In this document: one piece after another, positions 256-26,351 of the stretch
How positions within the stretch are numbered: position 1 is the first letter of the stretch
Layout of the letters: every line of letters begins with the position of its first letter
Source: Candidatus Cloacimonadota bacterium
Lineage (GTDB): Bacteria; Cloacimonadota; Cloacimonadia; Cloacimonadales; TCS61
Reading direction: 5' to 3'
Length of the DNA: 48,579 nt
Assembly (NCBI GenBank): GCA_029932755.1
Contig: JAOZPK010000001.1
Location: 1-48,579, forward strand
Translations under genes and position numbers: made by a program
The notes under the pieces: generated by a model
Databases searched by the model: none
What the model was told of the DNA's origin: nothing
What the model saw: only the letters and a program-made list of their open reading frames with translations

Positions 256-1002
256 ATGTTCAAGCAACTTAAAACAAAGAAGTTCAATGAGCAGATAATA
301 GATCAAATTAAGAAACTGATCGAAGATGGTACTTTAAAAAAGGGTGACAAGTTACCGCCTGAACGTCTTCTCGCTGAACAGTTTGGCAGCAGCAGAGCTT
401 CTATCAGGGAAGCTATGAGCGCCCTGGATATGATGGGTATAATTGAGAGCCGGAGTGGATCTGGTAACTATATAAAGATCAATATAGAAGAATCCGCCAT
501 AGATGAAGCGATGATTGGAGAGCTCCTGACGCATCATAGTTTGTTTGATATTTATGAAGCTAGACAGGAGATCGAACCTTCTCTTGTCTCACTGGCCTCA
601 GTTAGAAAAACAGATAAGGAAGTTTTGGAATTCCAGGAAATTCTTAAAAAATTACTTAATACTTCAAAAAATTTAATAAAAAATCCAGAAAATGTTAATA
701 CTTATATGGAAGAAGATATAAAATTTCATCTTAAAATTGCTGAAATGGCTCATAATCCGATCTTATTTAAATTCTATGCCAGCATTTGTCTACTTCTGAG
801 AGAAGAAACATGGCTGGAATTAAAACGAGCTGATATATTGAAGAATGGAACACAGCAAACCGAGATTGAGCATATTGCCATTGCTGATACGATTATTAGT
901 GGTGATGCAGAACAAGCTAAGAAAAATCTTCATGTTCACCTTGAAAGAATAAGAATAGGTTTACTTTCAAAATTAGAGAATAAGAGTATAAAAGGAATAT
1001 AA
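256..1002 (+). CDS. GntR/FadR-family transcriptional regulator (wHTH + FCD-like ligand domain)
   Basis: AAGGGGG RBS sits just upstream. N-terminal GntR-type wHTH (KLPPERLLAEQFGSSRASIREAMSAL) is followed by an all-helical C-terminal domain. It is the first gene of the co-directional cluster. Confidence 0.9.
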   Translation: MFKQLKTKKFNEQIIDQIKKLIEDGTLKKGDKLPPERLLAEQFGSSRASIREAMSALDMMGIIESRSGSGNYIKINIEESAIDEAMIGELLTHHSLFDIYEARQEIEPSLVSLASVRKTDKEVLEFQEILKKLLNTSKNLIKNPENVNTYMEEDIKFHLKIAEMAHNPILFKFYASICLLLREETWLELKRADILKNGTQQTEIEHIAIADTIISGDAEQAKKNLHVHLERIRIGLLSKLENKSIKGI

Positions 1003-1019
1003 GGGATTAATTAAAAATA

Positions 1020-2345
1020 ATGGAAAATTTGAACACACTTTTTAATGCTGGATCTGTAGCAATAGTTGGAGCCTCGAATAATGTGGGAAAAAAGGGTTAT
1101 GAAATTCTTCAAAATTTAATTCAAGGTGACTATAAGGGTAATATCTACCCCATTAATCCGAAAGAAGCCGAAATACAAGGCTTAACCGCCTACAGATCTT
1201 TAACCTCAATTGGTACAAGGGTAGATTTAATTGTCATTGTTATCCCAAGTAAATTTGTATCTGCTGTACTGGAAGAAGCTGGCCAACTATCCATTCATCA
1301 TGCCGTAATAATAACCGGCGGATTCAGAGAAATAGGATGTGATGACTTGGATGCCGCTATGTTAGCTGTTGCTGAAAAATATAAGATAAACATAGTCGGG
1401 CCCAATTGTCAGGGTGTTAACTATACACCTAATAAGATGTGTGTCTCATGGCCTCTGATCCGGGGAAAAGGACCAATGGCAATTATTGCACAAAGCGGTA
1501 CAGTGGCAGCTCAATTTGGATTAATTGCCGACAAAGACAGTATTGGAGTTTCGGGTCTGGTAAGCTTGGGGAACAAATCTGGTTTAACTGAAATTGAGTT
1601 TTTGGAGTTCTTCGGTACTGATCCCAACACCAAAGCCATAGCCTTGAATCTGGAAGGGATAAAAGAGGGAGCTAAGTTTCTTAAACTTGTAAAAGATATA
1701 CTCCAACAAAAACCTGTTATAATCTTAAAACCGGGAAGAACGGTCAAGGGAATGATCGCTGCCCAATCTCATACAAAATCTATAGCCGGAAGCGATAAGA
1801 TATTTGATGCTGCCTGCCGCCAGATAGGACTTATCCGTGCCGACAGTATTGACGAGCTTTACGATTACACCAAAATATTGGGTTTTTTATCTAAACCAGC
1901 AGGAAACAGAGTACAGATAATAACCAGCTCAGGCGGGAGCGGGATCTTGGCTACTGATATTTTTGAAGAGAACGATGTAGATATGGTTGAGATAAATCCA
2001 GAACTAAAAAGGATCCTTAGTGAAAAATTACCTTCGCATTGTGTTTTATCAAATCCCCTCGATCTAACGGGTGATACAGATGCTGCCAGATATGAAACAT
2101 GTGTTGAAGAAGCTATTAACTTTAATAATTCCGATATGTTCTTATTGATCTTTGGAGATCCTATACCAGGAGCTCATGAAGTAGTTTCCAGATTAAGAAC
2201 AAAAACAGATAAGCCGATAATCGTCTGCTATCTGGGAGGTGGGAAGATCGAAGATGAAGAGACTCAGAAAATGCATCTGGTAGGTATACCGACCTTTCCT
2301 ACTCCAACCAGGGCTGCAAAAGCTTTAGCTATTTTATGTAAATGA
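1020..2345 (+). CDS. acdA: ADP(NDP)-forming acyl-CoA synthetase, alpha subunit (CoA-binding + succinyl-CoA-synthetase-like domains)
   Basis: N-terminal CoA-binding Rossmann segment (VAIVGASNNVGKKGY). Candidate phosphohistidine segment is AAQSHTKSIAGS. The 441-aa size matches alpha subunits of two-subunit archaeal-type enzymes. Confidence 0.8.
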   Translation: MENLNTLFNAGSVAIVGASNNVGKKGYEILQNLIQGDYKGNIYPINPKEAEIQGLTAYRSLTSIGTRVDLIVIVIPSKFVSAVLEEAGQLSIHHAVIITGGFREIGCDDLDAAMLAVAEKYKINIVGPNCQGVNYTPNKMCVSWPLIRGKGPMAIIAQSGTVAAQFGLIADKDSIGVSGLVSLGNKSGLTEIEFLEFFGTDPNTKAIALNLEGIKEGAKFLKLVKDILQQKPVIILKPGRTVKGMIAAQSHTKSIAGSDKIFDAACRQIGLIRADSIDELYDYTKILGFLSKPAGNRVQIITSSGGSGILATDIFEENDVDMVEINPELKRILSEKLPSHCVLSNPLDLTGDTDAARYETCVEEAINFNNSDMFLLIFGDPIPGAHEVVSRLRTKTDKPIIVCYLGGGKIEDEETQKMHLVGIPTFPTPTRAAKALAILCK

Positions 2346-2375
2346 TAATAATAAATAAATAAGGAGATATCTAAA

Positions 2376-4322
2376 ATGAAATGGATCACAAAAGATGAAC
2401 CAGGTTCCATAAAATTAATGATGGGAAATGAGGCAATTGCTCGCGGCGCTATTGAAGCTGGAGTTCAATTGACAGCCTGCTACCCTGGAACACCCAGTTC
2501 GGAGATCGGGGAAGTTCTGGGTGAAGTTGCCAAAGATCTGAATCAATATTTTGAATGGAGCACAAACGAGACAGTAGCCTTTGAAGTAGCAGCCGGGGCA
2601 TCTTTGGCTGGAGCAAGAGCACTGACAGCTATGAAGAATGCTGGATTCAATTTAGTTATGGATAACTTCATGACCCTAACCTACGGCGGGGTCAAGGGAG
2701 GATTTGTGGTTGTTGTTGCTGATGATCCCGGTGCACACTACTCCTCCAATGAACAGGATACCAGAATTGAAGCAGTTGCTGCCGAGTTATTGATCTTCGA
2801 ACCTCAAGATCAGAATCAGGCTCGTTTAATGACAAAAGAAGCTTTTGATATTTCAGAAAAACTTGAACTGCCTGTCTTCTTACGTTCCGTAACCAGATTA
2901 TCACACGCTAGCGGAAATGTCGAGTTTGGTAAGATCTCTCAAAAAAGAAACACGATCGGTTTTAATAAACACTGGAAAATACCCTACCGCTGGGATGTTT
3001 ACGGACCTCCCGGACCTCAAAGTAAACGCGAATGGCTGCATTCACGATTACCCATGATGGCTGAATATGTAGAAAATTCCGAATTTAATAAGCTAACGAT
3101 CTGTGATTCTAAGATAGGAATAGTAACTGTCGGAATAGCTGCAACATATGTTAAGGAAGCATTAGCAGAACTTAATCTAGTGGATAAGATCCATCTATTG
3201 GATCTGGGGATTGTCAATCCACTTCCAAAAGCAAAAGTAGCTGAATTATTGAATAATTCTGATCATCTTATTGTAGTTGAAGAGGGTGATCCGGTGGTGG
3301 AGAACGCTGTTCGTTTGTTGGCTAAAGAATTAAAACCGGAGATAATTATACAGGGTAAACTTTTTGACAACAGGGTTTTCCCGACCGAAGGAGAGATGGA
3401 TCCGGACAATGTAAGAATAGGAATTTCAAATGCCTTAAACCTGGTAATTAATAAAGATCTAAAAAGAGAGGAATTGAAAGCAGCTATTAAAAAGATCATA
3501 ACAACACGTTCTTCCACTCTTTGTCCCGGTTGTCCGCATCTTGGAAGTTACTGGGCCATGCGTAAGATCTTGGAAAAATACGAGGGTAATTCTATCGTTA
3601 ATGGAGATATTGGGTGCTATGAACAGGGTGGATACGGTCTAGCTACCAACACCTTTGAAATTACAGATGAAGATAACAAAAATTTCAAAATAAATTCACC
3701 TTATGAGATCCTCGACACTATCTATGTTATGGGCTCAGGGATCGGTATGGCACAGGGACAATATCAGGTGGGACATAAGGGAAAGATCCTGGCTGTAGCA
3801 GGGGACTCAACATTTTTCCATACTTGTCTGCCGACGCTGGCAAATGCTGTTTATAATGAAGCTGATATCACCTTTGTGGTTTTTGATAATACCTGGACCT
3901 GTATGACAGGCCACCAGCCGAATCCAGTAACGGGTATCAAGGGGAATGGTGATGTGGCAACAATAATTTCGATCGAAAAAGTATCGGAAGCATTGGGAAT
4001 CCACTCTGTAAGTGTAGCTGATGCCTATGATATCGAAGGAGCAAAGAAAGTTTTAAAAGCAGGATTAGACTATAATGGACCTGCTGTAGTTATTTTACGT
4101 CGTGAATGCGCACTTCAGGTTCTACGTCGCAAGGAGTTTCCACCTTTCGAATTTGAAATTCTACAAGATAAGTGCATCGGATGCAAAGCCTGCGTAGAAC
4201 TGGGCTGTCCAGCCATAACATTTGCCAACGGCAAAGCCGATATCGATAGAGCGCTTTGTGTAGACTGCAGTCTCTGCGCCCAGGTTTGTCCAGTAGATGC
4301 AATAATTTGTAGGAGTGTGTAA
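2376..4322 (+). CDS. iorA: indolepyruvate:ferredoxin oxidoreductase alpha subunit (TPP + 2x[4Fe-4S])
   Basis: AAGGAG RBS. TPP-binding GDSTFFH...FDN segment. C-terminal CIGCKACVELGCP and CVDCSLCAQVCP ferredoxin motifs. 648-aa size is typical of IorA. Confidence 0.88.
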   Translation: MKWITKDEPGSIKLMMGNEAIARGAIEAGVQLTACYPGTPSSEIGEVLGEVAKDLNQYFEWSTNETVAFEVAAGASLAGARALTAMKNAGFNLVMDNFMTLTYGGVKGGFVVVVADDPGAHYSSNEQDTRIEAVAAELLIFEPQDQNQARLMTKEAFDISEKLELPVFLRSVTRLSHASGNVEFGKISQKRNTIGFNKHWKIPYRWDVYGPPGPQSKREWLHSRLPMMAEYVENSEFNKLTICDSKIGIVTVGIAATYVKEALAELNLVDKIHLLDLGIVNPLPKAKVAELLNNSDHLIVVEEGDPVVENAVRLLAKELKPEIIIQGKLFDNRVFPTEGEMDPDNVRIGISNALNLVINKDLKREELKAAIKKIITTRSSTLCPGCPHLGSYWAMRKILEKYEGNSIVNGDIGCYEQGGYGLATNTFEITDEDNKNFKINSPYEILDTIYVMGSGIGMAQGQYQVGHKGKILAVAGDSTFFHTCLPTLANAVYNEADITFVVFDNTWTCMTGHQPNPVTGIKGNGDVATIISIEKVSEALGIHSVSVADAYDIEGAKKVLKAGLDYNGPAVVILRRECALQVLRRKEFPPFEFEILQDKCIGCKACVELGCPAITFANGKADIDRALCVDCSLCAQVCPVDAIICRSV

Positions 4323-4323
4323 A

Positions 4324-4917
4324 ATGAAATTTAATCTAATTATATGCGGTGTTGGCGGTCAGGGTAGTATCCTCTCATCAAAGATCATTGCTGATGCAGC
4401 GATTAAAAAAGGATATGAAGTAAGAGTTGGAGAGACTTTTGGTGCAGCTATGCGTGGTGGTTCCGTATCATCACATGTAAAGATCGGTGATATTCATTCC
4501 CCTCTGGTTGCTCATAATAGCGCTGATGTGATACTTTCAATGGAACCGCTGGAAAGTTTAAGGGTCAGTGTAGATTATCTTGCTCCTCAAGGGATTGTCA
4601 TATCAGATATCCGACCTTGGTACCCGGTCGATACTAATGCCGGAGGAGCACCTTATCCTTCCAATGATGAGATCATAGCTGAATTAAAAAAATTGGGTAA
4701 AGAAGTCCATTTCCTGGACGCTGCAGCCTTAGCAAAAAAAGCGGGACATCCAAGGACAACAAACATTGTTTTGATCGGTGCCTTAGCTGCCCTGGGTAAA
4801 TTACCAATAGAAAGCAAATATCTAATAGAAGCTATTAAGGAACGAGTTCCCCAAAAAACTATTGATGTCAATATCAAAGCTTTCGAGTTGGGATTCGATT
4901 CTATCAAAAAGAGTTAA
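4324..4917 (+). CDS. iorB: indolepyruvate:ferredoxin oxidoreductase beta subunit
   Basis: N-terminus MKFNLIICGVGGQG is typical of the POR-gamma/IorB fold. The ATG at 4324 lies ~8 nt after AGGAG (4311-4315), so it is preferred over the GTG at 4315 in the ORF track. It directly follows the iorA stop at 4322. Confidence 0.85.
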   Translation: MKFNLIICGVGGQGSILSSKIIADAAIKKGYEVRVGETFGAAMRGGSVSSHVKIGDIHSPLVAHNSADVILSMEPLESLRVSVDYLAPQGIVISDIRPWYPVDTNAGGAPYPSNDEIIAELKKLGKEVHFLDAAALAKKAGHPRTTNIVLIGALAALGKLPIESKYLIEAIKERVPQKTIDVNIKAFELGFDSIKKS

Positions 4918-4929
4918 CAGGCCTTAATT

Positions 4930-5628
4930 ATGAAAATGGAAAAAGTGAGATCAATTCTCTACAAAGCAAAAGAGGAGAAACGCTGGTTACTTGAACCGGA
5001 AGCTATGGAGATCCTCAAAACTTATGAAATTTCTGTGCCGGAGCATCGATTTATCAATGATATTAAGGAAGCTGTGAAAAGTGCTGAATCGATTGGATAT
5101 CCTGTCGTATTAAAAATAGTCTCACCTGCTATTCTGCATAAATCTGATGCGGATTGCGTAAAACTAAACCTGACAAATGGTGAAGAGGTTAGAAATGCCT
5201 ATCAGGAGATATTGACAAATGCAGAAAAATTCGATCCGAAAGCTGAGATCAGGGGAATAATCATCTACCCCATGGTCAAAGCAGGTTTAGAGACCATTAT
5301 TGGCATAACTGAAGATGCTCAATTCGGTCCTGCTGCCATGTTCGGTTTGGGTGGAGTTTTTGTAGAAGTATTGAAAGATGTAGCTTTTCGTATCCTTCCT
5401 TTAACTCTGGATGATGCCTTGGCAATGATAAAAGAAATCAAAGGCTACCAATTACTGTGTGGAATCAGAGGTGAGAAAACCAAAGATATAATCTCACTGG
5501 CTGAAACAATTGTTAAGGTCTCAAAGTTATGCACCGATTTCCCGGAGATCAAAGAGATAGATCTAAATCCGACCTATGTATATGAGCAGTGCGTTACTGT
5601 CGTAGATGCTAGGATCAGGGTCGGTTAA
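4930..5628 (+). CDS. acdB: ADP(NDP)-forming acyl-CoA synthetase, beta subunit (ATP-grasp)
   Basis: 232-aa ATP-grasp-type protein (GYPVVLKIVSPAILHKSDADCVKLN; C-terminal IDLNP). Its size and architecture match beta subunits of two-subunit acetyl/aryl-CoA synthetases. Confidence 0.8.
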   Translation: MKMEKVRSILYKAKEEKRWLLEPEAMEILKTYEISVPEHRFINDIKEAVKSAESIGYPVVLKIVSPAILHKSDADCVKLNLTNGEEVRNAYQEILTNAEKFDPKAEIRGIIIYPMVKAGLETIIGITEDAQFGPAAMFGLGGVFVEVLKDVAFRILPLTLDDALAMIKEIKGYQLLCGIRGEKTKDIISLAETIVKVSKLCTDFPEIKEIDLNPTYVYEQCVTVVDARIRVG

Positions 5629-5668
5629 TTAATTTATTATAAAATTTAATATAGAGATGGAGGAGTAA

Positions 5669-7735
5669 ATGAAATTGAGAATTGGAGTTGATATCGGCGG
5701 TACGTTTACAGACTGTGTAGTTATCAACGAACAGGGTATTATTCACACTTTCAAAGAATTATCTACACCCAGCGATCAATCGATAGGGCTCTATAATGTG
5801 ATCAAAAAGGCAGCCGAATTTTTTGACCTTTCTCTACATGATTTTCTTGGTTGCGCCGAGATATTTGCTCATGGAACCACGGTGGCGACCAATACATTGC
5901 TGACCAGAACGGGAGCAAAAACCGGTTTGATCTTAACCAAGGGCTTCAGAGATACACTGGATATGAGAAGGGCTCATAAAAACAACATCTGGGATCTTCA
6001 CCTGGAATTTGCACCTACACTGGTTGATCGTTACTTGAGACTTGGAGTAACAGAAAGACTGGATTATAAAGGAGATATCGTAACTCCTCTAAATGAAGAA
6101 GATGTAAGGAAAATTTGTAAAAAATTCCAAAAAGAAGAAGTGGAAGCGGTAGCTATTTGTACACTGTTTTCATTTTTAAATAATGTTCATGAAGATCGCA
6201 TCATGGAGATCGTGAAGGAAGAGATGCCGGAGGCATTTGTCTCTAAATCTTCTGAAGTTCTACCTCAGATCCGCGAATATGAGAGAAGTTCTACTATTGT
6301 AGCCAATGTTTATGTCGGTCCAAAATTAACTGTTTATCTTTCTAATTTGGAGCACAAACTAAAGCAGGACGGATTAGAAAAAGCATTTTATGTAACCGCT
6401 TCAAATGGTGGCATGATGACCTGTGATACTGCTATCAAGCATGCTTCCGCTACTTTACTTTCCGGTCCCGCTGCCGGGTCTATTGGAGCTATCTTTTTCT
6501 CCAAACTTTTAGGAGAGGAAGATATTATCCTGATGGATATGGGAGGGACATCGTTTGATGTATCTCTGATCAATAAAGGTGAGATCACCCTGAGCACAGA
6601 AGGAGAAGTTGCTGGTTATCGCATTGCCAAACCAATGATTGATATCCATACAGTTGGTGCCGGAGGGGGTTCAGTTGCCTGGCTGGATGCCGGAGGGATG
6701 TTGCGGGTCGGTCCCGAATCGGCCTATTCCGATCCTGGTCCGATCTGTTACGATATTGGTGGTGAAAAACCTGCGGTGACCGATGCAAATCTTTTGCTGG
6801 GATATCTGAATAAAGATTATTTCTTGGGTGGAGAAATGCAGGTAAATTATCAGAAAGCTTATGACGGTACTAAGACAATAATTGCTGATTCGATGAATAT
6901 GAGTGTGGAAGATGCCTGTCTAGGTATATTCCAGATCGTTAATCAGAACATGGCAGATGCCACCAAAGTTGTCTCAGTTCAGCGTGGTCATGATCCTCGC
7001 GAATTCACCATGGTGAGTGCCGGTGGTGCCTGTTCAATTCACGCCTGTAAAATTGCTGAGGAAATCGGTTCTCAGAAAATTATCGTGCCTAAAGCTGCTT
7101 CGGTATTTTGTGCCTTAGGCATGCTGGAATCTGATATCAAATTAGATAATGTCCGTAGCTTTAACGGGAATATTCCCGGGCTTGATATTGAAATATTCAA
7201 CGCTAAGATCACCAGGACCGAAGAAGAGGCAATGGGTGAACTACTGGAAGAGGGTGTAGAGAAAAAACGTTCATCATTATTACGTTATTTGGATGTCCGT
7301 TATGTAGGGCAACATCATGAAGTGACCGTTGCTATTCCTAACAATTGTGTGATAAAGAAAGAGCATCTTAAGATAATTGCCGAAACATTCCATAGAGCTC
7401 ATGAAAAACTTTATACCTACTCAACACCTGAAACTCCTATAGAGATAATCAACCTCAGAATAACCGCTGTGGGTCATGTTGATAAAACAGGGCTTTATGA
7501 AAAACCGATTGAGAAAATGGACTTAAGCTCAGCTCTTAAGAATAAACGTAAGATCCGTTTTGAAGAATATGAGAAGGCAATAGATACACCCGTTTATGAT
7601 CGTGATAAAATTAAACCGGGTACGAAAATCGAAGGTCCTGCTGTAATTGAAGAACGAATTACCACAATAATAGTACATCCTAAATGGAATGCCTATGTAG
7701 ATGGTTATGAGAATGTGATCATGGAGGTAAAATAA
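5669..7735 (+). CDS. hyuA: hydantoinase/oxoprolinase family protein, A subunit (ATP-dependent cyclic amide hydrolase/carboxylase family)
   Basis: GGAGG RBS. The N-terminal RIGVDIGGTFTDCVV and central MDMGGTSFDVSLI motifs are ASKHA-type ATPase motifs typical of HyuA/N-methylhydantoinase A/acetone carboxylase beta. Confidence 0.88.
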   Translation: MKLRIGVDIGGTFTDCVVINEQGIIHTFKELSTPSDQSIGLYNVIKKAAEFFDLSLHDFLGCAEIFAHGTTVATNTLLTRTGAKTGLILTKGFRDTLDMRRAHKNNIWDLHLEFAPTLVDRYLRLGVTERLDYKGDIVTPLNEEDVRKICKKFQKEEVEAVAICTLFSFLNNVHEDRIMEIVKEEMPEAFVSKSSEVLPQIREYERSSTIVANVYVGPKLTVYLSNLEHKLKQDGLEKAFYVTASNGGMMTCDTAIKHASATLLSGPAAGSIGAIFFSKLLGEEDIILMDMGGTSFDVSLINKGEITLSTEGEVAGYRIAKPMIDIHTVGAGGGSVAWLDAGGMLRVGPESAYSDPGPICYDIGGEKPAVTDANLLLGYLNKDYFLGGEMQVNYQKAYDGTKTIIADSMNMSVEDACLGIFQIVNQNMADATKVVSVQRGHDPREFTMVSAGGACSIHACKIAEEIGSQKIIVPKAASVFCALGMLESDIKLDNVRSFNGNIPGLDIEIFNAKITRTEEEAMGELLEEGVEKKRSSLLRYLDVRYVGQHHEVTVAIPNNCVIKKEHLKIIAETFHRAHEKLYTYSTPETPIEIINLRITAVGHVDKTGLYEKPIEKMDLSSALKNKRKIRFEEYEKAIDTPVYDRDKIKPGTKIEGPAVIEERITTIIVHPKWNAYVDGYENVIMEVK

Positions 7736-9501
7736 TGGCTGTGGCAAGAAAGAGAACTAAAGAATTTGAAGGTGCTAAAGATCCGATCACCTTTGCTGTT
7801 ATTTACAACCGTTTACTCACGATCAATCGTGAAATGGGTATTACCATGATAAATACTTCGATCTCACCCATCTTTGCTGAAGTCCATGATTTTTCATGTG
7901 CGATCTGTGACTGGGAGAACAGGATAGTGGCGCAAGTTGACGGAGTTCCTTCCCATACAGCCTCTGCAATGGAGGCAGTAAAGGCTGTCAGCCGTGTGTT
8001 TGGAGCCGACATTCATCCGGGAGATGTTTTTGTAATGAATGACCCCTATCTGGGTGGTACACATCTTCCTGATGTAACGATCATGAAGCCCATCTTTTAT
8101 GAAGGGGAAATGCAGTTTGTCTCAATTAATCGAGCCCATCATGGTGATGTTGGTGGGATGGAACCTGGTTCATATTGTCCTGAAGCAACCGAACTTTTCC
8201 ACGAAGGAATACGAATTCCTCCTCTCAGACTATTCAGGGATAACAAACCCATTGAAGATGTTGCCGAGATGATCAAGATCAATACCCGGATGCCGGATGA
8301 TCTATGGGTCGATATCAAAGCTCAGGTTGCATCATGCCGGGTGGGAGAAAAACGTATTCTGGAATTATTAGAAAAATATGGTGTAAAAAAAGTGCGGGAA
8401 TCGATCGAGGATATTCATCTCTACGCAGAGTCACGCATGCGCCGGGAAATTGAAAAATTACCCGATGGCGATTATTTCGGTGAGAGTTTTCTGGATAATG
8501 ATGGATTCACGGAAGATCCGATCAAAATAGCTGTAAAAATAACCATTAAGGGTGATAATGCGATAGTTGATCTTGCCGGCTCAGATCCCCAGGTTACGGG
8601 ATTCGTAAACTCACCTATCGCTAATACTGCTACTTGTGTTTATGTAGCATTTCTGACCACAGTAACTACTCCCGATATTCCACATAACGAAGGAGTTTAT
8701 CGACCGATCAAAATAGAGGCGCCGGAAGGAAGTATTGTTAATCCTCTCTTCCCTGCTCCAGTTGCATCCTGTACACTTGATACTGCCTGTGCAATTCTGG
8801 AAGCATGCTGGCAGGCTTTAAGTGAGATCATCCCGGACAGGGTTCCGGCAGGCTGGAATCGATGGAACGGACCGACCATAACAGGCATCGATCCGCGACG
8901 GGAAAATTTCTATGTCATGTTTGGCTTCAACGGATTCGGTGGGGCAGGCGGTATGAATGGCATGGACGGTCGTCATTATATCGGAGACGGAATCGATCTG
9001 GGAGGATTGATCGCTCCCAATATTGAAACTAATGAAGTTGATTATCCCCATATAACCGAATTTAATGAATATACTCAAGATTCTTGTGGAGCAGGTAAAT
9101 TCAGAGGCGGCTGTGGAGCAAGATACAGAGTGAAGCTTTATGATAAATCTCCAACTCTGGTCAATTTTGGTGATGGTAAAATCTTTCCACCATATGGTCT
9201 TTTCGGTGGAAAAACTGGATCCTGTAATTATGCTTTAATCAATGAGGGAAAGGAAAACCAAAGAGAATTGAAAGCTAAAGAATCAGTGAAATTGAAACAG
9301 TATGATACTTTTACATCATATCCATCCGGCGGCGGCGGCTGGGGGAATCCCATGGACCGCGATCCGGAATTGGTCCGTAATGATGCCCGGGATGAACTCA
9401 TCTCTCTGAGTAGTGCCCGTGAAGAATATGGAGTGGTTATAGATGGAGATGATTATGAGATCAATTGGTCTGAAACAAATAAATTAAGAAATAAGTATTA
9501 G
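7735..9501 (+). CDS. hyuB: hydantoinase B/oxoprolinase family protein
   Basis: The ATG overlaps the hyuA stop by 1 nt (TAATG). It starts with DPITFAVIYNRL and contains a NDPYLGGTHLPD segment, both characteristic of Hydantoinase_B. 588 aa. Confidence 0.88.
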   Translation: MAVARKRTKEFEGAKDPITFAVIYNRLLTINREMGITMINTSISPIFAEVHDFSCAICDWENRIVAQVDGVPSHTASAMEAVKAVSRVFGADIHPGDVFVMNDPYLGGTHLPDVTIMKPIFYEGEMQFVSINRAHHGDVGGMEPGSYCPEATELFHEGIRIPPLRLFRDNKPIEDVAEMIKINTRMPDDLWVDIKAQVASCRVGEKRILELLEKYGVKKVRESIEDIHLYAESRMRREIEKLPDGDYFGESFLDNDGFTEDPIKIAVKITIKGDNAIVDLAGSDPQVTGFVNSPIANTATCVYVAFLTTVTTPDIPHNEGVYRPIKIEAPEGSIVNPLFPAPVASCTLDTACAILEACWQALSEIIPDRVPAGWNRWNGPTITGIDPRRENFYVMFGFNGFGGAGGMNGMDGRHYIGDGIDLGGLIAPNIETNEVDYPHITEFNEYTQDSCGAGKFRGGCGARYRVKLYDKSPTLVNFGDGKIFPPYGLFGGKTGSCNYALINEGKENQRELKAKESVKLKQYDTFTSYPSGGGGWGNPMDRDPELVRNDARDELISLSSAREEYGVVIDGDDYEINWSETNKLRNKY

Positions 9502-9509
9502 GAGAAATC

Positions 9510-10646: not shown

Positions 10647-10658
10647 AGGAGTATTATT

Positions 10659-11660: not shown

Positions 11661-11768
11661 TTATTTTAGCCGTCGCGGATCATTGTTTTTAATTAAGAAT
11701 AATTATCTGCAAACATTATGTTCATCGTTGCAGAAAACCAAAATAGAAGTTAATGGAGGAGGAGTAAA

Positions 11769-13400: not shown

Positions 13401-13433
13401 TTTGCTGATCTATATTAGGGAAAGAGACCATAG

Positions 13434-14450: not shown

Positions 14451-14458
14451 GATATTAT

Positions 14459-16324: not shown

Positions 16325-17277
16325 AAGATTTGGATTTTATTAAAATAGAGAATGTTAAAAAATATTTTCCTATTGGAAATGACCTATTTGTAAAAGCATT
16401 AGATGGGATAGATCTGGAAATTAATAAAGGAGAGACCGTTGGACTCGTAGGTGAATCGGGATCCGGCAAGAGTACTCTGGCCTATACTCTGATGGGTATG
16501 TATGAACCTACCGATGGAAAAATAAGCTTCAAAAATGAGAATATCGGATTGAAAGCTCAAAAAAGAGATTTGAGTATAAAAAAAGAGATGCAGATTGTTT
16601 TTCAGGATCCAAGTGGTTCTTTAAATCCAAGAAGAGTTATTTCTAATATTTTATCCCGTCCGCTGCTGCTTCATAAAATCGTTCCAAAAAATGAATTAAA
16701 GGCAAAACTGATCGAGCTCTTAGATTCAGTTGAACTTCCACAGGAGTATTTGTACAAATATACACCTTCGATAGGTGGAGGTGAAAAACAACTGATAGCA
16801 ATAGCTCGAGCCATTGCTGCTCATCCAGAATTTCTAATCCTGGATGAGCCCACCAGTTCGCTTGATGTTTCGGTACAAGGTAAGATCATCAATACCCTGA
16901 TGAAACTAAAAAAAGAATTGAATCTGACCTATCTATTCATAACTCACGATATGAGCTTAATGCGCAATGTTGCCGACCGTATTGCCATCATGTATCTGGG
17001 TAAGATCATGGAGCTGGCAACTACTCGTGAATTCTTTGAAAACCCTCTGCATCCTTATACTAAGATGCTATTATCTTCTATCCCCGTGGTAAGTGCTGAG
17101 GAAGAAAAATTATTACCGAAAGAGATCAAATCCAGTGGTGAGATCCCCAGCCCGGTCAATTTACCAGAGGGTTGTCGATTTATTACCCGTTGCCCTTATG
17201 CTAAAGAGATCTGTGAAACAAAAGAACCGGAATTAACTGAGAGAGAACCCGGTCATTGGTCCAGATGCTATTATTGA
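16321..17277 (+). CDS. ABC transporter ATP-binding protein (DppF/OppF-like) with degenerate signature motif
   Basis: ATGA overlap with the previous gene. Walker A GESGSGKS, Walker B LILDEPT, H-loop ITHD. The signature reads IGGGEKQ instead of LSGGQ. C-terminal CRFITRCP...C motif. Confidence 0.9.
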   Translation: MKDLDFIKIENVKKYFPIGNDLFVKALDGIDLEINKGETVGLVGESGSGKSTLAYTLMGMYEPTDGKISFKNENIGLKAQKRDLSIKKEMQIVFQDPSGSLNPRRVISNILSRPLLLHKIVPKNELKAKLIELLDSVELPQEYLYKYTPSIGGGEKQLIAIARAIAAHPEFLILDEPTSSLDVSVQGKIINTLMKLKKELNLTYLFITHDMSLMRNVADRIAIMYLGKIMELATTREFFENPLHPYTKMLLSSIPVVSAEEEKLLPKEIKSSGEIPSPVNLPEGCRFITRCPYAKEICETKEPELTEREPGHWSRCYY

Positions 17278-17324
17278 TTTAATTTATAAAAAGTTAAAAT
17301 TTCTGTTGTAAAAGGAGATTTTGT

Positions 17325-18176
17325 ATGCAATATTTCCTATCCGCAACTTTGAATGAGTTGCTGCTAGTTTTGGATTCTGAGAGTAATAGCGAAATAATAG
17401 CCGGTGGAACAGACCTGGTCATCATTATGGAGGAGTCGGGTAAAAGACCGGAAAAATTAATTGATATAACAAATATTAAAGAACTTATTGGTATCAAAGA
17501 AGAAAAATTTGGAATCTCTATAGGAGCAGTTACGACTATTGCAAAGCTTGCTGCCAATAATAGTTTACCCTGTTGTTTAAGAAGTGGCGCTGCTTCAATT
17601 GGTTCACCCCAGATCAGAAATGTCGGCACTATTGGGGGAAATATCTGCAACGCCTCACCCAGTGGTGATACCCTGACTCCGCTTATATGTTTAAATGCAG
17701 ATCTCCTGTTGCAATCTACCAAAGGTGAACGGTTAATTTCTACCGAACAATTTTTCCTGGGTCCCAAAAAAACAGTATTGAAAAAAAATGAAGTTTTGTC
17801 GGAGATCCGAATCGGTAATAGATATTTGTCTGGCTCATCCGGTTTCAGGATGATCGGTCAGCGTAATGGGCAAGTTATCTCTCAAGTAAACTTGGCTGTA
17901 TGGCTAAAAAGATCAGCAGAGTCCGGTCTAATTGAAGAAATCCGTATTGCAGCCGGTTCTGTTGCTCCTACTCCGATCAGAATTATTGAAGCTGAAGAGA
18001 TGCTTTGCGGTACAAATCCCGGGGCCAAATTGATCTTCCAAGCTGCCCGCTCAGTACAAGCATGTATCACCCCTATTAATGATGTACGCTCTACTGCTGA
18101 ATATAGGCAGGATGTAATTATTGGTCTGTTTAGTGATATTATGTCACAAATATTAAAGGAGCCCCAATCATGCTGA
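17325..18176 (+). CDS. xanthine dehydrogenase/CO dehydrogenase-family FAD-binding subunit
   Basis: AAGGAG RBS. The segments IIAGGTDL and GTIGGNICNASPSGD are typical of the medium (FAD) subunit. 283 aa. Confidence 0.88.
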   Translation: MQYFLSATLNELLLVLDSESNSEIIAGGTDLVIIMEESGKRPEKLIDITNIKELIGIKEEKFGISIGAVTTIAKLAANNSLPCCLRSGAASIGSPQIRNVGTIGGNICNASPSGDTLTPLICLNADLLLQSTKGERLISTEQFFLGPKKTVLKKNEVLSEIRIGNRYLSGSSGFRMIGQRNGQVISQVNLAVWLKRSAESGLIEEIRIAAGSVAPTPIRIIEAEEMLCGTNPGAKLIFQAARSVQACITPINDVRSTAEYRQDVIIGLFSDIMSQILKEPQSC

Positions 18177-18646
18177 TCGAATTTATATGTAACGGAAAAG
18201 AGATCAGTGTAGATGTTCTTGCTGAGATGAGGGCTTTAGATTTGATCAGAAATGAACTACTGCTTACCGGCACAAAATGCGGCTGCTCCAAAGGTGAATG
18301 TGGTTCCTGTACTATTTTAGTGGATGGTATTCCCGAATGCTCCTGCTTACTACTGGCTCCCAAGTTACAGGGCAAAGTGATTACAACAATTGAAGGTCTG
18401 GAAGGAGCAGATGGAGAGCTACACCCTATCCAACAGGCATTTTTGGAGGAGGGCGCTGTGCAATGCGGATTCTGCACTCCGGGTATGATCCTCAGTACAA
18501 AAGCGTTATTAAAAAAGAATCCTGCTCCCACAGTGACAGAAATTGAAGAGGGACTTAGTGGTAATATCTGTCGTTGTACTGGTTATACAAAAATTATCAA
18601 AGCAGTTCAATTCGCAGCTCTTAAATTGAAAGGATCTGAAATATGA
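18170..18646 (+). CDS. xanthine dehydrogenase-family [2Fe-2S] small subunit
   Basis: 7-nt overlap with the FAD subunit. Cys clusters are CGCSKGECGSCT and CGFCTPG...CRCTGY. 158 aa. Confidence 0.9.
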   Translation: MLIEFICNGKEISVDVLAEMRALDLIRNELLLTGTKCGCSKGECGSCTILVDGIPECSCLLLAPKLQGKVITTIEGLEGADGELHPIQQAFLEEGAVQCGFCTPGMILSTKALLKKNPAPTVTEIEEGLSGNICRCTGYTKIIKAVQFAALKLKGSEI

Positions 18647-20919
18647 GAAATCAGGAATTGGTCCAAGTTGGAAAATCAGCTTTAAAAGTTGATGGTAGAG
18701 AACTCGTTACCGGTAAAGCAAAATTCAGTGGTGATTTTAATTTTCCGGATCTTCTGCATGGTTACGCCTGCCGTTCCAAAATAGCAGCTGGATATATTAA
18801 GGACATCGATATTTCACAAGCCCTGAAAGTTCCCGGAATTGTAGATGTAGTTCTGCCTAAAGATATACTGGGTGGAAATATTGTAGGGATTCTCCCACCT
18901 TATGACCAACCTGTGCTGGCAGATAAAGAGATAAGATATGCCGGTGAATCTTTTTGCCTGGTAGTGGGCACTTCGGTTCGGGCGGCAAAAGCTGGAGCCA
19001 GGGTCGTGATTGCAACAATTGAACCGATACCTCCCATCTTGACGATCGATGAGGCGTTAGCTAAGGATGCTCGTAAAATTCATGCCGCAGGAAATATAAC
19101 TGTCTCTAAAAAATTGATCAAAGGTGATTGTGCCAAAGCTTTTGCCGAATCCGATGTTATACTGGAAGATACTTTTGAAACATCCAATCAGGAACATGCC
19201 TATCTGGAAACGGAAGTTGTCTGTGCTGTACCTTACGGTGATGGTCGAATTACAGTTCACGCATCCTGTCAATCCCCCTTTCATATCCGAGGTCATATCG
19301 CTGCCAACTTGAATGTTCCGGTAGCTAATGTGAAAGTGGTCCAAGCGTATACAGGTGGCTCTTTCGGTGGAAAAGATGATACCGCAACCGAAATCGGCAG
19401 CCTGGCTGCTGTGGCTGCAGTACGGCAGGGTAAACCTGTAATGATCTCGAATGAGAGAGAGGAATCTATTGTCGGCTCAACTTTACGTCATGCCTCGCGT
19501 ATTCATTATCGAATAGCTGCCAAAAAAGATGGCACGATAACAGGAAAGGAGATAAAGATCCTCCTCGACGGTGGAGCCTATGCAGCAGAGAGCCCTTTTG
19601 TTGCTATGAAGGCTTTAATTCATTCTGCCGGACCATATAAAATTGACAATATCAAGGTTGAATCAACAGCCCTATACACAAACAAAACTTACTGCGGTGC
19701 TTTCCGCGGTTTTGGCGTTCCTCAGGTAACCTTTGCCTCGGAATCGATGATGGATGAGCTGGCAAAAAAGCTGAAAATGGATCCTCTGGAATTAAGACGT
19801 AAAAATGCTTTAAAACCCGGAGATCTGAATGCTACCAGTCAAGTCTTCCAGGAATCTGTTGGACTGATCGAAACAATTGATAAGGTTATTGACCTTAATA
19901 GATCATATACATTGCCATCTAAAAAACAGGACCGCTATCTATACGGAACCGGCTTTGCCAGCATGTATCAGGGCATTTCCAATGGTGCAGAAGGGATAGA
20001 TGTTGTAGGAGCAAGCGTTCAGGTTATGCAGGATGGAAGTGCTCTGGTTGGTATCGGTTTAACAGAATTGGGTCAGGGCTCCAGAACAGTATTTGCTCAG
20101 ATCGCTGCCGAAGTGCTAGGTATTTCCCTGGATAAAATTAGTGTTAAACAAGTAGATACCGATACCGTCCACGATTCGGGTCCAACCGTTGCTTCCCGCA
20201 GTACGACCGTTGGAGGTATGGCAGTTTATAAAGCAGCCGGAGAAGTAAAAAGATCATTGCTGAAAATGGCCGCTCTGATGTTCAAAACTGAAGAAAATAA
20301 TATTATTTTAAAAGATAATTTTGCTCAACTGGTTTTTGATGAAAATGCCAAAATACCTTTAAATGATGTCTGTGTGGCAGCCTATTGGACTGGATTCCCA
20401 CTCATGAATTTGTCCTTTTCCAAAGCACCGGAAGCTAAATACGATCAAGACACCACCCAGGGTAATATCTATATAGCGTATAATTACGGAACTCATATGA
20501 TGAGCGTAAGGATTGATAAACTGACCGGAGAAGTTAAAGTGCTGAAACACCTTGCAGTCCACGATGCTGGAAAAGTAGTTAATCCCAAAGCTTTTGAGGG
20601 ACAGGTTGAAGGCGCTTCATTAACCGGTTTTGGTCTGGCTCATCTGGAAAAAATTCAATACAGAGAAGGTGTAATAATAAATCCAAATCTGGCAGATTAT
20701 GCAGTGCCAACCATAAAAGACAGAATTCCCAGTGAAACTATATCAATAGAGACTTATAATCCCACCGGGCCTTATGGTGTAAAAGGTATTGGAGAACCTC
20801 CCGTTTCGGGAGCAGCAGCATCTTTTGCCAATGCTGTAGCAAAAGCAACAGGAATAAGATTCAAGAAACTACCAATAACCAGACAAGTAATATTAGAAGC
20901 AATAAATAGAAAAAAATAG
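18643..20919 (+). CDS. xanthine dehydrogenase-family molybdopterin-binding large subunit (substrate unknown)
   Basis: ATGA overlap with the small subunit. Carries GGSFGGKDD, AFRGFGVPQ and the C-terminal GIGEPP catalytic-Glu segment. 758 aa. Confidence 0.9.
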   Translation: MRNQELVQVGKSALKVDGRELVTGKAKFSGDFNFPDLLHGYACRSKIAAGYIKDIDISQALKVPGIVDVVLPKDILGGNIVGILPPYDQPVLADKEIRYAGESFCLVVGTSVRAAKAGARVVIATIEPIPPILTIDEALAKDARKIHAAGNITVSKKLIKGDCAKAFAESDVILEDTFETSNQEHAYLETEVVCAVPYGDGRITVHASCQSPFHIRGHIAANLNVPVANVKVVQAYTGGSFGGKDDTATEIGSLAAVAAVRQGKPVMISNEREESIVGSTLRHASRIHYRIAAKKDGTITGKEIKILLDGGAYAAESPFVAMKALIHSAGPYKIDNIKVESTALYTNKTYCGAFRGFGVPQVTFASESMMDELAKKLKMDPLELRRKNALKPGDLNATSQVFQESVGLIETIDKVIDLNRSYTLPSKKQDRYLYGTGFASMYQGISNGAEGIDVVGASVQVMQDGSALVGIGLTELGQGSRTVFAQIAAEVLGISLDKISVKQVDTDTVHDSGPTVASRSTTVGGMAVYKAAGEVKRSLLKMAALMFKTEENNIILKDNFAQLVFDENAKIPLNDVCVAAYWTGFPLMNLSFSKAPEAKYDQDTTQGNIYIAYNYGTHMMSVRIDKLTGEVKVLKHLAVHDAGKVVNPKAFEGQVEGASLTGFGLAHLEKIQYREGVIINPNLADYAVPTIKDRIPSETISIETYNPTGPYGVKGIGEPPVSGAAASFANAVAKATGIRFKKLPITRQVILEAINRKK

Positions 20920-20928
20920 GAGATTAAA

Positions 20929-22311
20929 ATGGCTGATTTGTTTATTAAAAATGGTTTAGTATTAACAATGGAACCCGACACTTTCAGTGGACTTGTAATA
21001 GAAAATGGTGCTGTCGCTGTAACCGGGAATATTATCGTAGCAGTTGGAAAAACTTCTGATCTGGAAGCTGAATATGGAAATTCAAAACGTGTTATAGATG
21101 CCTCAGGAAAAATTATAATGCCAGGGCTCATAATGACCCATTCGCACATGGCATACCCCTTAGGACATAATATGCCGGTCGATTTCACACAATTAAAATC
21201 ATTCTGGGATATGTTGATGAAAATGGGTTGGGAATGGCTGGAAGATGTTACAACTTGTGATGATATTTATGCAGCAACCATGTATTCTGCAATGAAAATG
21301 CTGAAAAGTGGTAATACTACAGTTTGCGAAACAGTGGAAGCACCTAATGCTCTACCGGGTCCTCTAATGGCAAGTGCCAGAGCAATAGAAGAGATCGGGA
21401 TCAGAGCTCAGGTTGGTTATGAGATCACTGAACGTGTTCCCGGAGAAGATATTTTGAAAACCCAGAGTCTGGAATGGGCTGATAAAGGTATTCAGGAAAA
21501 CATTGATTTTCTTACCAAATATCCCAAAAATAACGGTAGTCGAATAGAAGCAAGACCAGCCATACACGCTGCCTATACTGTTTCTGAAGAAACATTAAAG
21601 AAAGTTCGTACACTAGCTGATGCACTTGATTGCGGTATTCAAATTCATGTTTCAGAAATTCCCAGGGCTTTTCTTGTAGAAAAATATGGAAAATCCGCAC
21701 CCAAATATCTTGAGGATGCCGGTTTACTTGGTCCGGATGTTATTGCTGGTCACAGTATCGATCTGGATGATGAAGACCTAGAGATCCTGCGTCGTAATGA
21801 TGTAAAGGTTTCCTATACACCAATGACGGATTCACTGGGTGGCAACCTTGTAGCACGTATTCCTGAAATGCTGGAAAAAAATATGAATGTTACTATCGGT
21901 CACGATTGCTTTTTTACTCTGGATATTTCGGAATACATGCGCTACACCTACCTGGTGCAGAAAAATCATCATCATAATCCGCTGGTAGTTTCCCCCTTCC
22001 AGATGCTGGATATGGTCACTATGCAGGGTGCTCGAGCTTTGGGTGTGGAAGATCAGATCGGAAGCCTGAAGGTTGGGAAAAAAGCTGATGTAATACTTAT
22101 TGAACCTGATTCACCATCACCAACAACAGTAGCTACATATTTGTCTTATTTCACAATGACCTTCCAGGGAAAACATGTTCATACAGTAATTGTAGATGGA
22201 AATATTGTGGTGGAAGAATATAAAATGAAGAACGTCAATGAAGCTTTGATAAGAAAAAATTGTGTTGAACATGCACGTCAACTCTGGAAAAGAAATGGTA
22301 TAGAAGTTTAG
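20929..22311 (+). CDS. metal-dependent amidohydrolase, ATZ/TRZ-SsnA/deaminase-like
   Basis: AGGAG RBS. N-terminal beta-sandwich followed by the HSH (HxH) metal motif, an IHVSE (HxxE) segment, AGHS, and an HD near the beta-8 position. 460 aa. Confidence 0.8.
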   Translation: MADLFIKNGLVLTMEPDTFSGLVIENGAVAVTGNIIVAVGKTSDLEAEYGNSKRVIDASGKIIMPGLIMTHSHMAYPLGHNMPVDFTQLKSFWDMLMKMGWEWLEDVTTCDDIYAATMYSAMKMLKSGNTTVCETVEAPNALPGPLMASARAIEEIGIRAQVGYEITERVPGEDILKTQSLEWADKGIQENIDFLTKYPKNNGSRIEARPAIHAAYTVSEETLKKVRTLADALDCGIQIHVSEIPRAFLVEKYGKSAPKYLEDAGLLGPDVIAGHSIDLDDEDLEILRRNDVKVSYTPMTDSLGGNLVARIPEMLEKNMNVTIGHDCFFTLDISEYMRYTYLVQKNHHHNPLVVSPFQMLDMVTMQGARALGVEDQIGSLKVGKKADVILIEPDSPSPTTVATYLSYFTMTFQGKHVHTVIVDGNIVVEEYKMKNVNEALIRKNCVEHARQLWKRNGIEV

Positions 22312-22376
22312 GATTTCCTGAATTCTAAAACTGGAACCTGAAAGCAGTAATTGATATTGATGAAAAGGAGATTAAA

Positions 22377-23558
22377 ATGGCTAATCTGAATTGTAAAATC
22401 GGTGATGTAAAATTAAATAATCCGTTTATTGTTACAGCAGGAGAACACGGCAGAGACGGTGAAGAGATCTTAAAAGTGGCTAAAACAGGGGTGGGTGCTA
22501 TAACCACTAAAACTATTGTCCCTCATCCGGCTCCAGACCCAAGACCTTGTTGTGTTCCCATGGATAATGGTTTTTTAAATTGTGTTCTGGCTGCTATCAT
22601 GCCCAGTGAGCAGTGGTTTAAGGAAGAAATACCTCTCGCAAAAAAAGCAGGCTTACCTATCATAGCTAACCTTGCTTCAGCAGACCCGAATGAAGCTGCT
22701 GAACTGGCTGTTAAAGCTGTGGAAGCCGGCGCAGATATGATAGAACTGGCTACATATTGTCCTCATCTGGCTGAAAACCTGGAAGCCCAGTTTCCCGGAC
22801 TCAAAATTCCACCTCCGGAAATGGATAATCCAAAACCATTCTATAATACCGTTAAGGCTGTACGCGAGGTGGTTAATGTTCCTATTATTGGCAAGGTCTC
22901 GGCTTGTCATTTCTCTAATATTCTACCTTGGATAGAAGCCGGTGTTAAAGCAGGTCTGGACGCTGTTGAAGTTACTGATACGATCGGTCCGGTAATGCTT
23001 ATAGATATTGAAACAGGGCAACCCAAACTTGGTGGTCCTCGCGGATACGGTGGTTTGTCTGGTGGAGCTCTTAAACCCATAGCCATGCGGATGGTTTTTG
23101 AAATTGCTCAGAACTATGATATACCGATCATTGCTTCGGGTGGAATTCAATCAGCCGAGGACGCTATCGAGTATGCAATGGCAGGTGCCACTTATTTCGG
23201 TGTTTGTACGGTGGGTCATTTAGAAGGACAGAACAGATATACATCACTTATCAAAGATTTAGAAGATTATCTTGAAAATAGGGGCATTACTTTGGATGAG
23301 ATCAGGGGTTTAACTTTACGCAAAGTAGAAGAACGTAAAGAAAAGGGATGGGATTGCAATCTTGAACCAATTCCTCCCCTGGTGCATGAAGATATCTGTA
23401 TTGGATGTGGAAAATGCAAGGATGCCTGTATCTACGATGCCATTACAATTGAGAATGGAAAAGCTGTGATCCATAAAGATGTTTGTTATGGCTGCGGATG
23501 CTGTGTTTGGACCTGTCCGACAAAGGCAATTGAAAATATGTATTATAAAGACATTTAA
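22377..23558 (+). CDS. dihydroorotate/dihydropyrimidine dehydrogenase (PreA)-like flavoprotein with C-terminal 2x[4Fe-4S] domain, paralog 1
   Basis: DHODH-type TIM-barrel segments (KTIV...P, ATYCPH active-site-loop Cys, GGLSG, ASGGIQSAEDAIEYAMAGA). C-terminal CIGCGKCKDAC and CYGCGCCVWTCP motifs. Confidence 0.82.
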   Translation: MANLNCKIGDVKLNNPFIVTAGEHGRDGEEILKVAKTGVGAITTKTIVPHPAPDPRPCCVPMDNGFLNCVLAAIMPSEQWFKEEIPLAKKAGLPIIANLASADPNEAAELAVKAVEAGADMIELATYCPHLAENLEAQFPGLKIPPPEMDNPKPFYNTVKAVREVVNVPIIGKVSACHFSNILPWIEAGVKAGLDAVEVTDTIGPVMLIDIETGQPKLGGPRGYGGLSGGALKPIAMRMVFEIAQNYDIPIIASGGIQSAEDAIEYAMAGATYFGVCTVGHLEGQNRYTSLIKDLEDYLENRGITLDEIRGLTLRKVEERKEKGWDCNLEPIPPLVHEDICIGCGKCKDACIYDAITIENGKAVIHKDVCYGCGCCVWTCPTKAIENMYYKDI

Positions 23559-23577
23559 TTATTTGGAGGTTTTATTA

Positions 23578-24768
23578 ATGAACAATATAGATCTAACCAC
23601 AAAATTCTGTGGTCTAACACTTAAGAATCCCATAATTATTCCTGCTGGAATTCATGGAAGAAGCGGTAAGGTGATCAAAGAAATTTCAAGTTCTGGAGTG
23701 TCCGCTATCTGTACAAAAACAATAGTTCCCCAATCTGCACCGGACGTATTGCCTTGTTTTGTTGAGGTTCCCAACAAAACCGGTATGCTTAATTCCGTGT
23801 TTGGCTCTGATAAATTCTCTGAATACTGGTTTACTGAAGGCATTAAAGAAGCAAAAGAGGGAGACGCCCTTGTCTTTGCAAATTTAGCAGGTTATTATCC
23901 TGAACAAGCTGCTGATCTAGCTCAGAAAGCTGAAGCGGCTGGGGCAGATCTGATCATTACTCCAACCCACTGTCCACATATGGGTGAAATTCTAAATGCC
24001 ATGTTTCCTGATATGAATTTCCAGGAAGCGGGACTTGCGGATACAGCAGGCATGACTGCAACGGTTAAAGCCATTAAAGCTGCTGTTAAAATACCCGTTG
24101 TTGTTAAACTTTCCGGTTCACATAACCACATAACACCGGAATGGGCTAAAGCAGTAAAAGAGGCAGGAGCTGATGGCATAGGTGTTTCAGATGCTTTTGG
24201 ACCTGCTCTGGCGATCGATACAAAAACGGGACAACCAATGCTGGGAGGGCCCAGAGGAATTGGTGGTTTAACCGGCCCTGCCATTATGCCCTTAGTTTTA
24301 CGCATGGTTTTAGAAACAGCAATGTCTATCGACCTGCCAATTCTTGGGGTGGGGGGTGTAACCAGTGCAAATGATGCCTTACAGTATATCATGGCTGGTG
24401 CTACACTGGTTGGAGTTGTCACAGCCGGTCACGTTGATGGACCTGTACGATATACAAAAATCATTGATGATCTCAAGATTCTATTGGAGCGTAACAATGT
24501 ATCTTCTCTAGAAGATGTCAGGGGACTCACGATAAAACGAATTCAAGAAAGAAAAGAAAATGATCAGGTTGCGGTAACTCAACCTATTGTTCCTCTTATA
24601 GATATTGATATATGCACCGGTTGCGCTAAATGTATTCCTGTTTGTGCTTTTGATGCAATGTGGATGGAGAACGAAAAAGCAAACATAAATAGTGAACTTT
24701 GTATTGGCTGCGGATTATGCAAAAGTGTGTGTCCATTTAATGCAATAATCCATGAATATTACAAATAA
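23578..24768 (+). CDS. dihydroorotate/dihydropyrimidine dehydrogenase (PreA)-like flavoprotein with C-terminal 2x[4Fe-4S] domain, paralog 2
   Basis: The ATG at 23578 lies 8 nt after GGAGG and is preferred to the ORF-track start at 23479, which overlaps the upstream gene. Same architecture as paralog 1 (PTHCPH, GGLTG, GVGGVTSANDALQYIMAGA, CTGCAKCIPVC, CIGCGLCKSVCP). Confidence 0.82.
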   Translation: MNNIDLTTKFCGLTLKNPIIIPAGIHGRSGKVIKEISSSGVSAICTKTIVPQSAPDVLPCFVEVPNKTGMLNSVFGSDKFSEYWFTEGIKEAKEGDALVFANLAGYYPEQAADLAQKAEAAGADLIITPTHCPHMGEILNAMFPDMNFQEAGLADTAGMTATVKAIKAAVKIPVVVKLSGSHNHITPEWAKAVKEAGADGIGVSDAFGPALAIDTKTGQPMLGGPRGIGGLTGPAIMPLVLRMVLETAMSIDLPILGVGGVTSANDALQYIMAGATLVGVVTAGHVDGPVRYTKIIDDLKILLERNNVSSLEDVRGLTIKRIQERKENDQVAVTQPIVPLIDIDICTGCAKCIPVCAFDAMWMENEKANINSELCIGCGLCKSVCPFNAIIHEYYK

Positions 24769-24914
24769 AAAAATGAGCAAGGGAGGTTGAAATGTTGTTG
24801 CTGTACCTATAATAGTGTCATATCCAGAAACAGTTAATGTTTATTTTTAGGAATAAACTAAAACTGATGAAGAAATAAGAATAAATTTAATTTAATTAAG
24901 TAAGGAGAAGAAAA

Positions 24915-26297
24915 ATGGAAGTTGAACAAAATAAAGATTTTGAGAGTATGTCCAGCTTAACTGTCGGAATAGATGATAAGTTAAGTTTAGGTGAAAATAT
25001 TCTCTACGGATTTCAACATGTCCTAGTGTTAATGCTAGCCCCTTTAGTTACTCCAATTATTTTTGCCAGTATCTTTAAATGGGATATTGCTGTTACGGCT
25101 TATCTCATGATGATCATGTTGCTAGGAGCGGGAATTGAGACTCTGGTTCAGACCAAAGTCCTGAAACTCCCTGTCGCTCAAGCTCAACATATCGTTTTTA
25201 TCGCAGCAATGATTCCGGCGATCTATACACTTGGTCCGATTATGGCCTGGGTAGGTTTACTGATTGTCAGTTTCATAACAATTCTGTTAGTGATCCCATT
25301 TAAAAAAGGATTGCTCGGAAGATTTCTACCCTATGTCGCCACTCCGGTTGTTCTAGGACCCCTGTTTATAGTTATGTCGGTGGGATTGGCAAAGATGAGT
25401 TGTGTAGATTTGATATTCCCACCCGATTATGTAAATGGTGGAAATATTGTATCTTCCACTAATCTGATCTTGGCAGGGATAGCCATGGGTGTTCCTCTGA
25501 TCATATCATTCCTGTTACCAAAAGGGATCTTACGTTATGCCAGTATTCTCTGGGGTGTTATCATCGCAATTATTGTAGCAGCTTTAATGGGACAAATAGA
25601 TTTTGCCCGTGTTGCGGCAGCTCCGTGGTTTGTTGCACCTAAAACTATCTGGGCTCTATTTGAAGGAAATATGGGAAGACCTTTAACTATATCATGGAGC
25701 TTTATCCCTGTGGTATTGATTCTCTTCATTGCTGAGCTTAGTAATGTGCTAGATACTATGGGTTGTTACCAGGCAACAGCTAATCTGGTTGGACAAAAAA
25801 TGACGACCGAACGAGCTAATCGCGGATTATTTGTGGAAACAGTTGCTTCTTTTGTTACTACGATTTTCGGTAATATCCCCTGTACTTCATTTAGTCAAAA
25901 TCTTGGCGTGCTTTCTCTATCCAGGGTTGGTGCCAAAAGTATCATGGTTGCCGGTGGAGCTATATTGATCTTTTTTGGGTTATTCTACAAAATTGGAGTC
26001 TTTTTTGCAGTTATACCATGGGCTATCTATGGTGGTGCTCTTATCGTATTGCTTGGTACTATTCTGGTTGTCGGAATTCAAATGATCGTAACTATGAAAA
26101 TGACTGAAACCAATAAGCTAATTGTTGGTTTCTCAAGTTTTATTGGCATAGCATTTGCTTTTGTTCCTTTTGGAGTTGCACAGCAGTTCCCATTATTTTT
26201 CAGCTTTTTTATTGGAAATCCTATAGGAACAACAGTTGTATTAGCAGTTATTTTAAATCTGGTCTTTGTACACTGGCTAAAAAGCCCGGGAAAATAA
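24915..26297 (+). CDS. NCS2/NAT-family nucleobase (xanthine/uracil-type) permease
   Basis: AAGGAG RBS. Highly hydrophobic 460-aa polytopic protein with a NAT-signature-like segment FSQNLGVLSLSR. Confidence 0.8.
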   Translation: MEVEQNKDFESMSSLTVGIDDKLSLGENILYGFQHVLVLMLAPLVTPIIFASIFKWDIAVTAYLMMIMLLGAGIETLVQTKVLKLPVAQAQHIVFIAAMIPAIYTLGPIMAWVGLLIVSFITILLVIPFKKGLLGRFLPYVATPVVLGPLFIVMSVGLAKMSCVDLIFPPDYVNGGNIVSSTNLILAGIAMGVPLIISFLLPKGILRYASILWGVIIAIIVAALMGQIDFARVAAAPWFVAPKTIWALFEGNMGRPLTISWSFIPVVLILFIAELSNVLDTMGCYQATANLVGQKMTTERANRGLFVETVASFVTTIFGNIPCTSFSQNLGVLSLSRVGAKSIMVAGGAILIFFGLFYKIGVFFAVIPWAIYGGALIVLLGTILVVGIQMIVTMKMTETNKLIVGFSSFIGIAFAFVPFGVAQQFPLFFSFFIGNPIGTTVVLAVILNLVFVHWLKSPGK

Positions 26298-26317
26298 ACA
26301 AAGATCGTTTTTCATTA

Positions 26318-26351
26318 ATAGAGGGGGAATTCCCCCCTTCTATTTTTTTTT
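26318..26351 (+). terminator. rho-independent terminator closing the catabolic island
   Basis: GC-rich hairpin TAGAGGGGGAATTCCCCCCTTCTA followed by a run of nine T. Confidence 0.85.

Follow-up and report, generated by a model that had tools for sequence, protein, structure and literature searches.

The E. coli ygeW/xdh/ssnA locus encodes a reductive uric-acid pathway, whose parts are XdhD, YgfK or UacX (PF01180), SsnA, HyuA, and YgeW together with YqeA (PMC12507026). In a clostridial variant of this pathway, the reductase is the PF01180 protein UacX, and both YgfK and UacX require SsnA to pull the reduction (PMC12507026). A sequence-only reading of the 48,579-nucleotide stretch analysed here (the window) had likened a ~26-kb gene island at its 5' end to the E. 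coli locus. This analogy proved apt, particularly with regard to the UacX-type variant: UacX is the same type of reductase as the PreA-like proteins of the island, and the functional pairing of SsnA with YgfK/UacX has a counterpart in an amidohydrolase gene that always adjoins a PreA-like gene. At the sequence level, island proteins share 24-31% identity with the E. coli yge/ygf/xdh proteins, and homologs of YgeX and YgeY were found in none of ~85 loci. By analogy, the cluster is best read as related to the recently described reductive uric-acid pathway but built from non-orthologous enzymes.

In order to re-check the layout, all island proteins were annotated with Pfam and NCBIfam profiles, which returned every domain call of the sequence-only reading and all 21 of its ORFs on the + strand (256-26297), as follows.

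256-1002, +, GntR/FCD-family transcriptional regulator (Pfam GntR and FCD)
1020-2345, +, alpha subunit of an ADP-forming acyl-CoA synthetase (ACD; CoA_binding, Succ_CoA_lig, Ligase_CoA_2)
2376-4322, +, IorA-type 2-oxoacid:ferredoxin oxidoreductase (IOR) alpha subunit with TPP and 2x[4Fe-4S] (POR_N, TPP_enzyme_C, Fer4)
4324-4917, +, IorB-type beta subunit (PF01558), start as set by gene callers
4930-5628, +, ACD beta subunit, ATP-grasp (ATP-grasp_5, 273 bits)
5669-7735, +, HyuA-type subunit of an ATP-dependent hydantoinase/lactamase (Hydant_A_N, Hydantoinase_A, Hydant_A_C)
7735-9501, +, HyuB-type subunit (Hydantoinase_B, 563 bits)
9510-10646, +, NAD-type enzyme of the opine-dehydrogenase family (ODH-like; Octopine_DH, 121 bits, and Rossmann domain)
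10659-11660, +, atypical OTC-family carbamoyltransferase (OTC-like; OTCace_N and OTCace)
11769-17277, +, Dpp/Opp-type ABC importer (SBP_bac_5 binding protein, two permeases, two OppD/F-type ATPases)
17325-18176, +, XDH-family FAD subunit (FAD_binding_5, CO_deh_flav_C)
18170-18646, +, XDH-family 2x[2Fe-2S] subunit (Fer2_2, Fer2)
18643-20919, +, XDH-family molybdopterin subunit, active-site variant (Ald_Xan_dh_C, MoCoBD_1, MoCoBD_2)
20929-22311, +, amidohydrolase of the SsnA / ATZ-TRZ deaminase group (top NCBIfam model SsnA, 255 bits, cutoff 444)
22377-23558, +, PreA/PydA/UacX-like flavoenzyme 1 (DHO_dh and 2x[4Fe-4S]), without NAD(P)H subunit
23578-24768, +, PreA/PydA/UacX-like flavoenzyme 2 (DHO_dh and 2x[4Fe-4S]), corrected start
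24915-26297, +, NCS2/NAT nucleobase:cation symporter (pbuX model, 201 bits, cutoff 414)
26317-26344, +, intrinsic terminator at the 3' end of the island (11-bp stem with 5 G-C pairs, then a T run)

The junctions at 7735, 15334/15335, 16321-16324, 18170-18176 and 18643-18646 were reproduced, as were the GntR/FadR-type regulator at the 5' end, which is the GntR/FCD gene, and the strong 3' terminator. The number of gaps above 40 nt had to be raised from three to four by that at 22312-22376 (65 nt). Two gene starts were also revised: iorB starts at 4324, one base past the iorA stop, and the second PreA-like gene most likely at the ATG at 23578, with GGAGG upstream at 23565-23569, and thus does not overlap its neighbour. 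None of the internal gaps contains a site comparable to the terminator at 26317-26344, and a search for a purine or xanthine riboswitch returned none. The operon structure, with tight or overlapping junctions and a single strong terminator at the end, favours one unit.

Close orthology to enzymes of characterised pathways had been set beforehand as a result that would count against an undescribed system, and none was detected, as the NCBIfam equivalog cutoffs were missed by all proteins except IorB (TIGR03334, 208.1 bits, cutoff 205.8); all roles are therefore assigned at the family level only. IorA scores 626 bits against TIGR03336 (cutoff 650.9) and ACD alpha 427 bits against TIGR02717 (cutoff 567). 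The top NCBIfam model for HyuA is the caprolactamase CapA (714 bits, cutoff 1000), and HyuB is closest to ATP-dependent caprolactamase (PDB 6yra_B, E 6.5e-104) and N-methylhydantoinase (the fused enzyme 7hk5, second match, E 6e-71). For the ODH-like protein, the top PDB match is CENDH (1bg6, E 4e-41), whose His/Arg/Asp set is retained; His210, Arg306, Glu310 and Asp311 are invariant across 27 orthologs. The OTC-like protein remains under every equivalog cutoff (272.5 bits for OTC, cutoff 280.85). Compared to OTC, it retains the carbamoyl-phosphate motifs as well as HPxQ and HCLP; STRTR is changed to STRTS, and VYSWVSP replaces the ornithine alpha-amino-acid motif DxxxSMG. The two PreA-like flavoenzymes share 45% identity with each other, the amidohydrolase 24% with E. 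coli SsnA, and the NCS2 permease 29% with E. coli UacT.

Next, we compared the island with 47 loci, each 8 kb or longer, drawn from 80 fetched contigs and the loci of earlier homolog searches; throughout, these are MAGs and metagenome contigs, in which the clusters are known from their genes alone. Homologs of the ODH-like protein number more than 500 (61-86% identity). The protein is present in 42 of the 47 loci, alongside HyuB (40), HyuA (39) and OTC (36), and the order HyuA-HyuB-ODH-OTC is nearly always kept. This fixed four-gene core occurs in MAGs labelled Atribacteria, Tepidanaerobacteraceae, Lachnospiraceae, Spirochaetales and Bacillota, and here in a Cloacimonadota-like host. For 14 of the related loci, the flanks extend 9 kb or more in both directions; among these, HyuAB was found in 14/14, OTC-like and XDH in 12/14 each, and IOR/ACD in 9/14; all 14 carry at least one of XDH, PreA and amidohydrolase, and 12 at least one of IOR/ACD, Grd and AFOR. 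Co-occurrence of the three sub-clusters elsewhere, the other test fixed in advance, was thus observed: several phyla link HyuAB/ODH/OTC both to XDH-PreA-amidohydrolase and to IOR/ACD, and the gene order varies. The same contigs were recovered when the search started from the amidohydrolase, whose orthologs show 60-68% identity across phyla and adjoin a PreA-like gene in every case. Even a distant clade (ODH ~50% identity) retains the same partner genes. The order ACDa-IorA-IorB-ACDb is kept in other phyla (ACD alpha 49-56% identical in related loci); other lineages carry, instead of this module or in addition to it, a tungsten-type aldehyde:ferredoxin oxidoreductase, a glycine/sarcosine-type selenoprotein reductase or a corrinoid methyltransferase set. 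In ten related loci, a GntR/FCD gene precedes HyuA. Dozens of unrelated metagenome contigs share this gene set, which is therefore not a chance assembly; judged by gene content, the island represents a cluster that has been conserved in many phyla of anaerobic bacteria. A description of such a route was not found in open-access and bioRxiv literature, in agreement with the earlier view that the combination is undescribed.

The enzyme families, assigned by homology, suggest a route whose step order and substrates we infer. The NCS2 permease would import the substrate, with the Dpp-type ABC system as an accessory importer, since among related loci it is confined to close relatives (L016-L018) and L083. 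The three-subunit XDH-family Mo hydroxylase would then fix the ring oxo pattern, and the Fe-S flavoenzymes would reduce the ring, presumably with ferredoxin as donor because the NAD(P)H subunit is absent; ring opening by the adjoining SsnA-related amidohydrolase could drive this unfavourable reduction, as SsnA does for YgfK/UacX. HyuAB may spend ATP on opening the leftover five-membered ring, a cyclic ureide or lactam whose stability would defeat a plain amidohydrolase. From the resulting alkyl-ureido group, OTC-like phosphorolysis would yield carbamoyl phosphate and, via carbamate kinase, ATP. As noted before, the window carries no carbamate kinase detectable by tblastn, nor do the 4.7 kb upstream of it on the source contig, which speaks against this scheme; the enzyme would have to be encoded elsewhere in this genome. 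In other genomes it lies within the cluster (L012, L013, L022) or adjoins it (L052, L054); that of L013 scores 403 bits with TIGR00746, above the cutoff of 358, and shares 48% identity with E. coli YqeA. The ODH-like enzyme might perform C-N redox at the alpha carbon of the carboxylate, either oxidising an alpha-(alkyl)amino acid to a 2-oxoacid or reducing an alpha-imino acid; we know of no opine-dehydrogenase-family enzyme acting in nucleobase catabolism, and this step is therefore a guess. Finally, IOR would convert the 2-oxoacid to acyl-CoA, its reduced ferredoxin possibly supplying the ring reduction, and ACD would turn acyl-CoA into acid and ATP.

Several genes hint at a purine: the NCS2 permease, whose signature motif (SQN) shares its Gln with those of XanQ and UacT; the Bmp/PnrA-type ABC importer in which the spirochaete versions terminate; the YqeC and SelA/SelB genes adjoining some clusters; and a second XDH type on the same core (L012, L013, L022) with the canonical xanthine-dehydrogenase residues Glu/Arg/Glu. 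Against this count the XDH of the window, which retains the catalytic Glu (GEPP) but carries Asp and Lys in place of bovine Glu802 and Arg880, a pair conserved in all orthologs of its type, and the IOR, closest to aryl-pyruvate enzymes, whose acid is not obvious from a purine, as well as the lack of a riboswitch hit for purine or xanthine. An N-methylated substrate would fit better than a plain purine with the sarcosine-reductase-like Grd and MtmB/MttB methyltransferase genes of some relatives. For the amidohydrolase, chlorohydrolase and deaminase models score nearly as high as SsnA, and it could act as an exocyclic deaminase rather than the ring opener.

Overall, co-occurrence and the lack of close orthology support the sequence-only reading of the island as a candidate system for uptake, ring hydroxylation, reduction and opening, ureido phosphorolysis and 2-oxoacid oxidation. 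We lean slightly towards the island being one functional unit by which a strict anaerobe would ferment a nucleobase-type cyclic ureide with substrate-level ATP gain, the substrate most probably being a purine such as hypoxanthine, xanthine, urate or a dioxopurine isomer.

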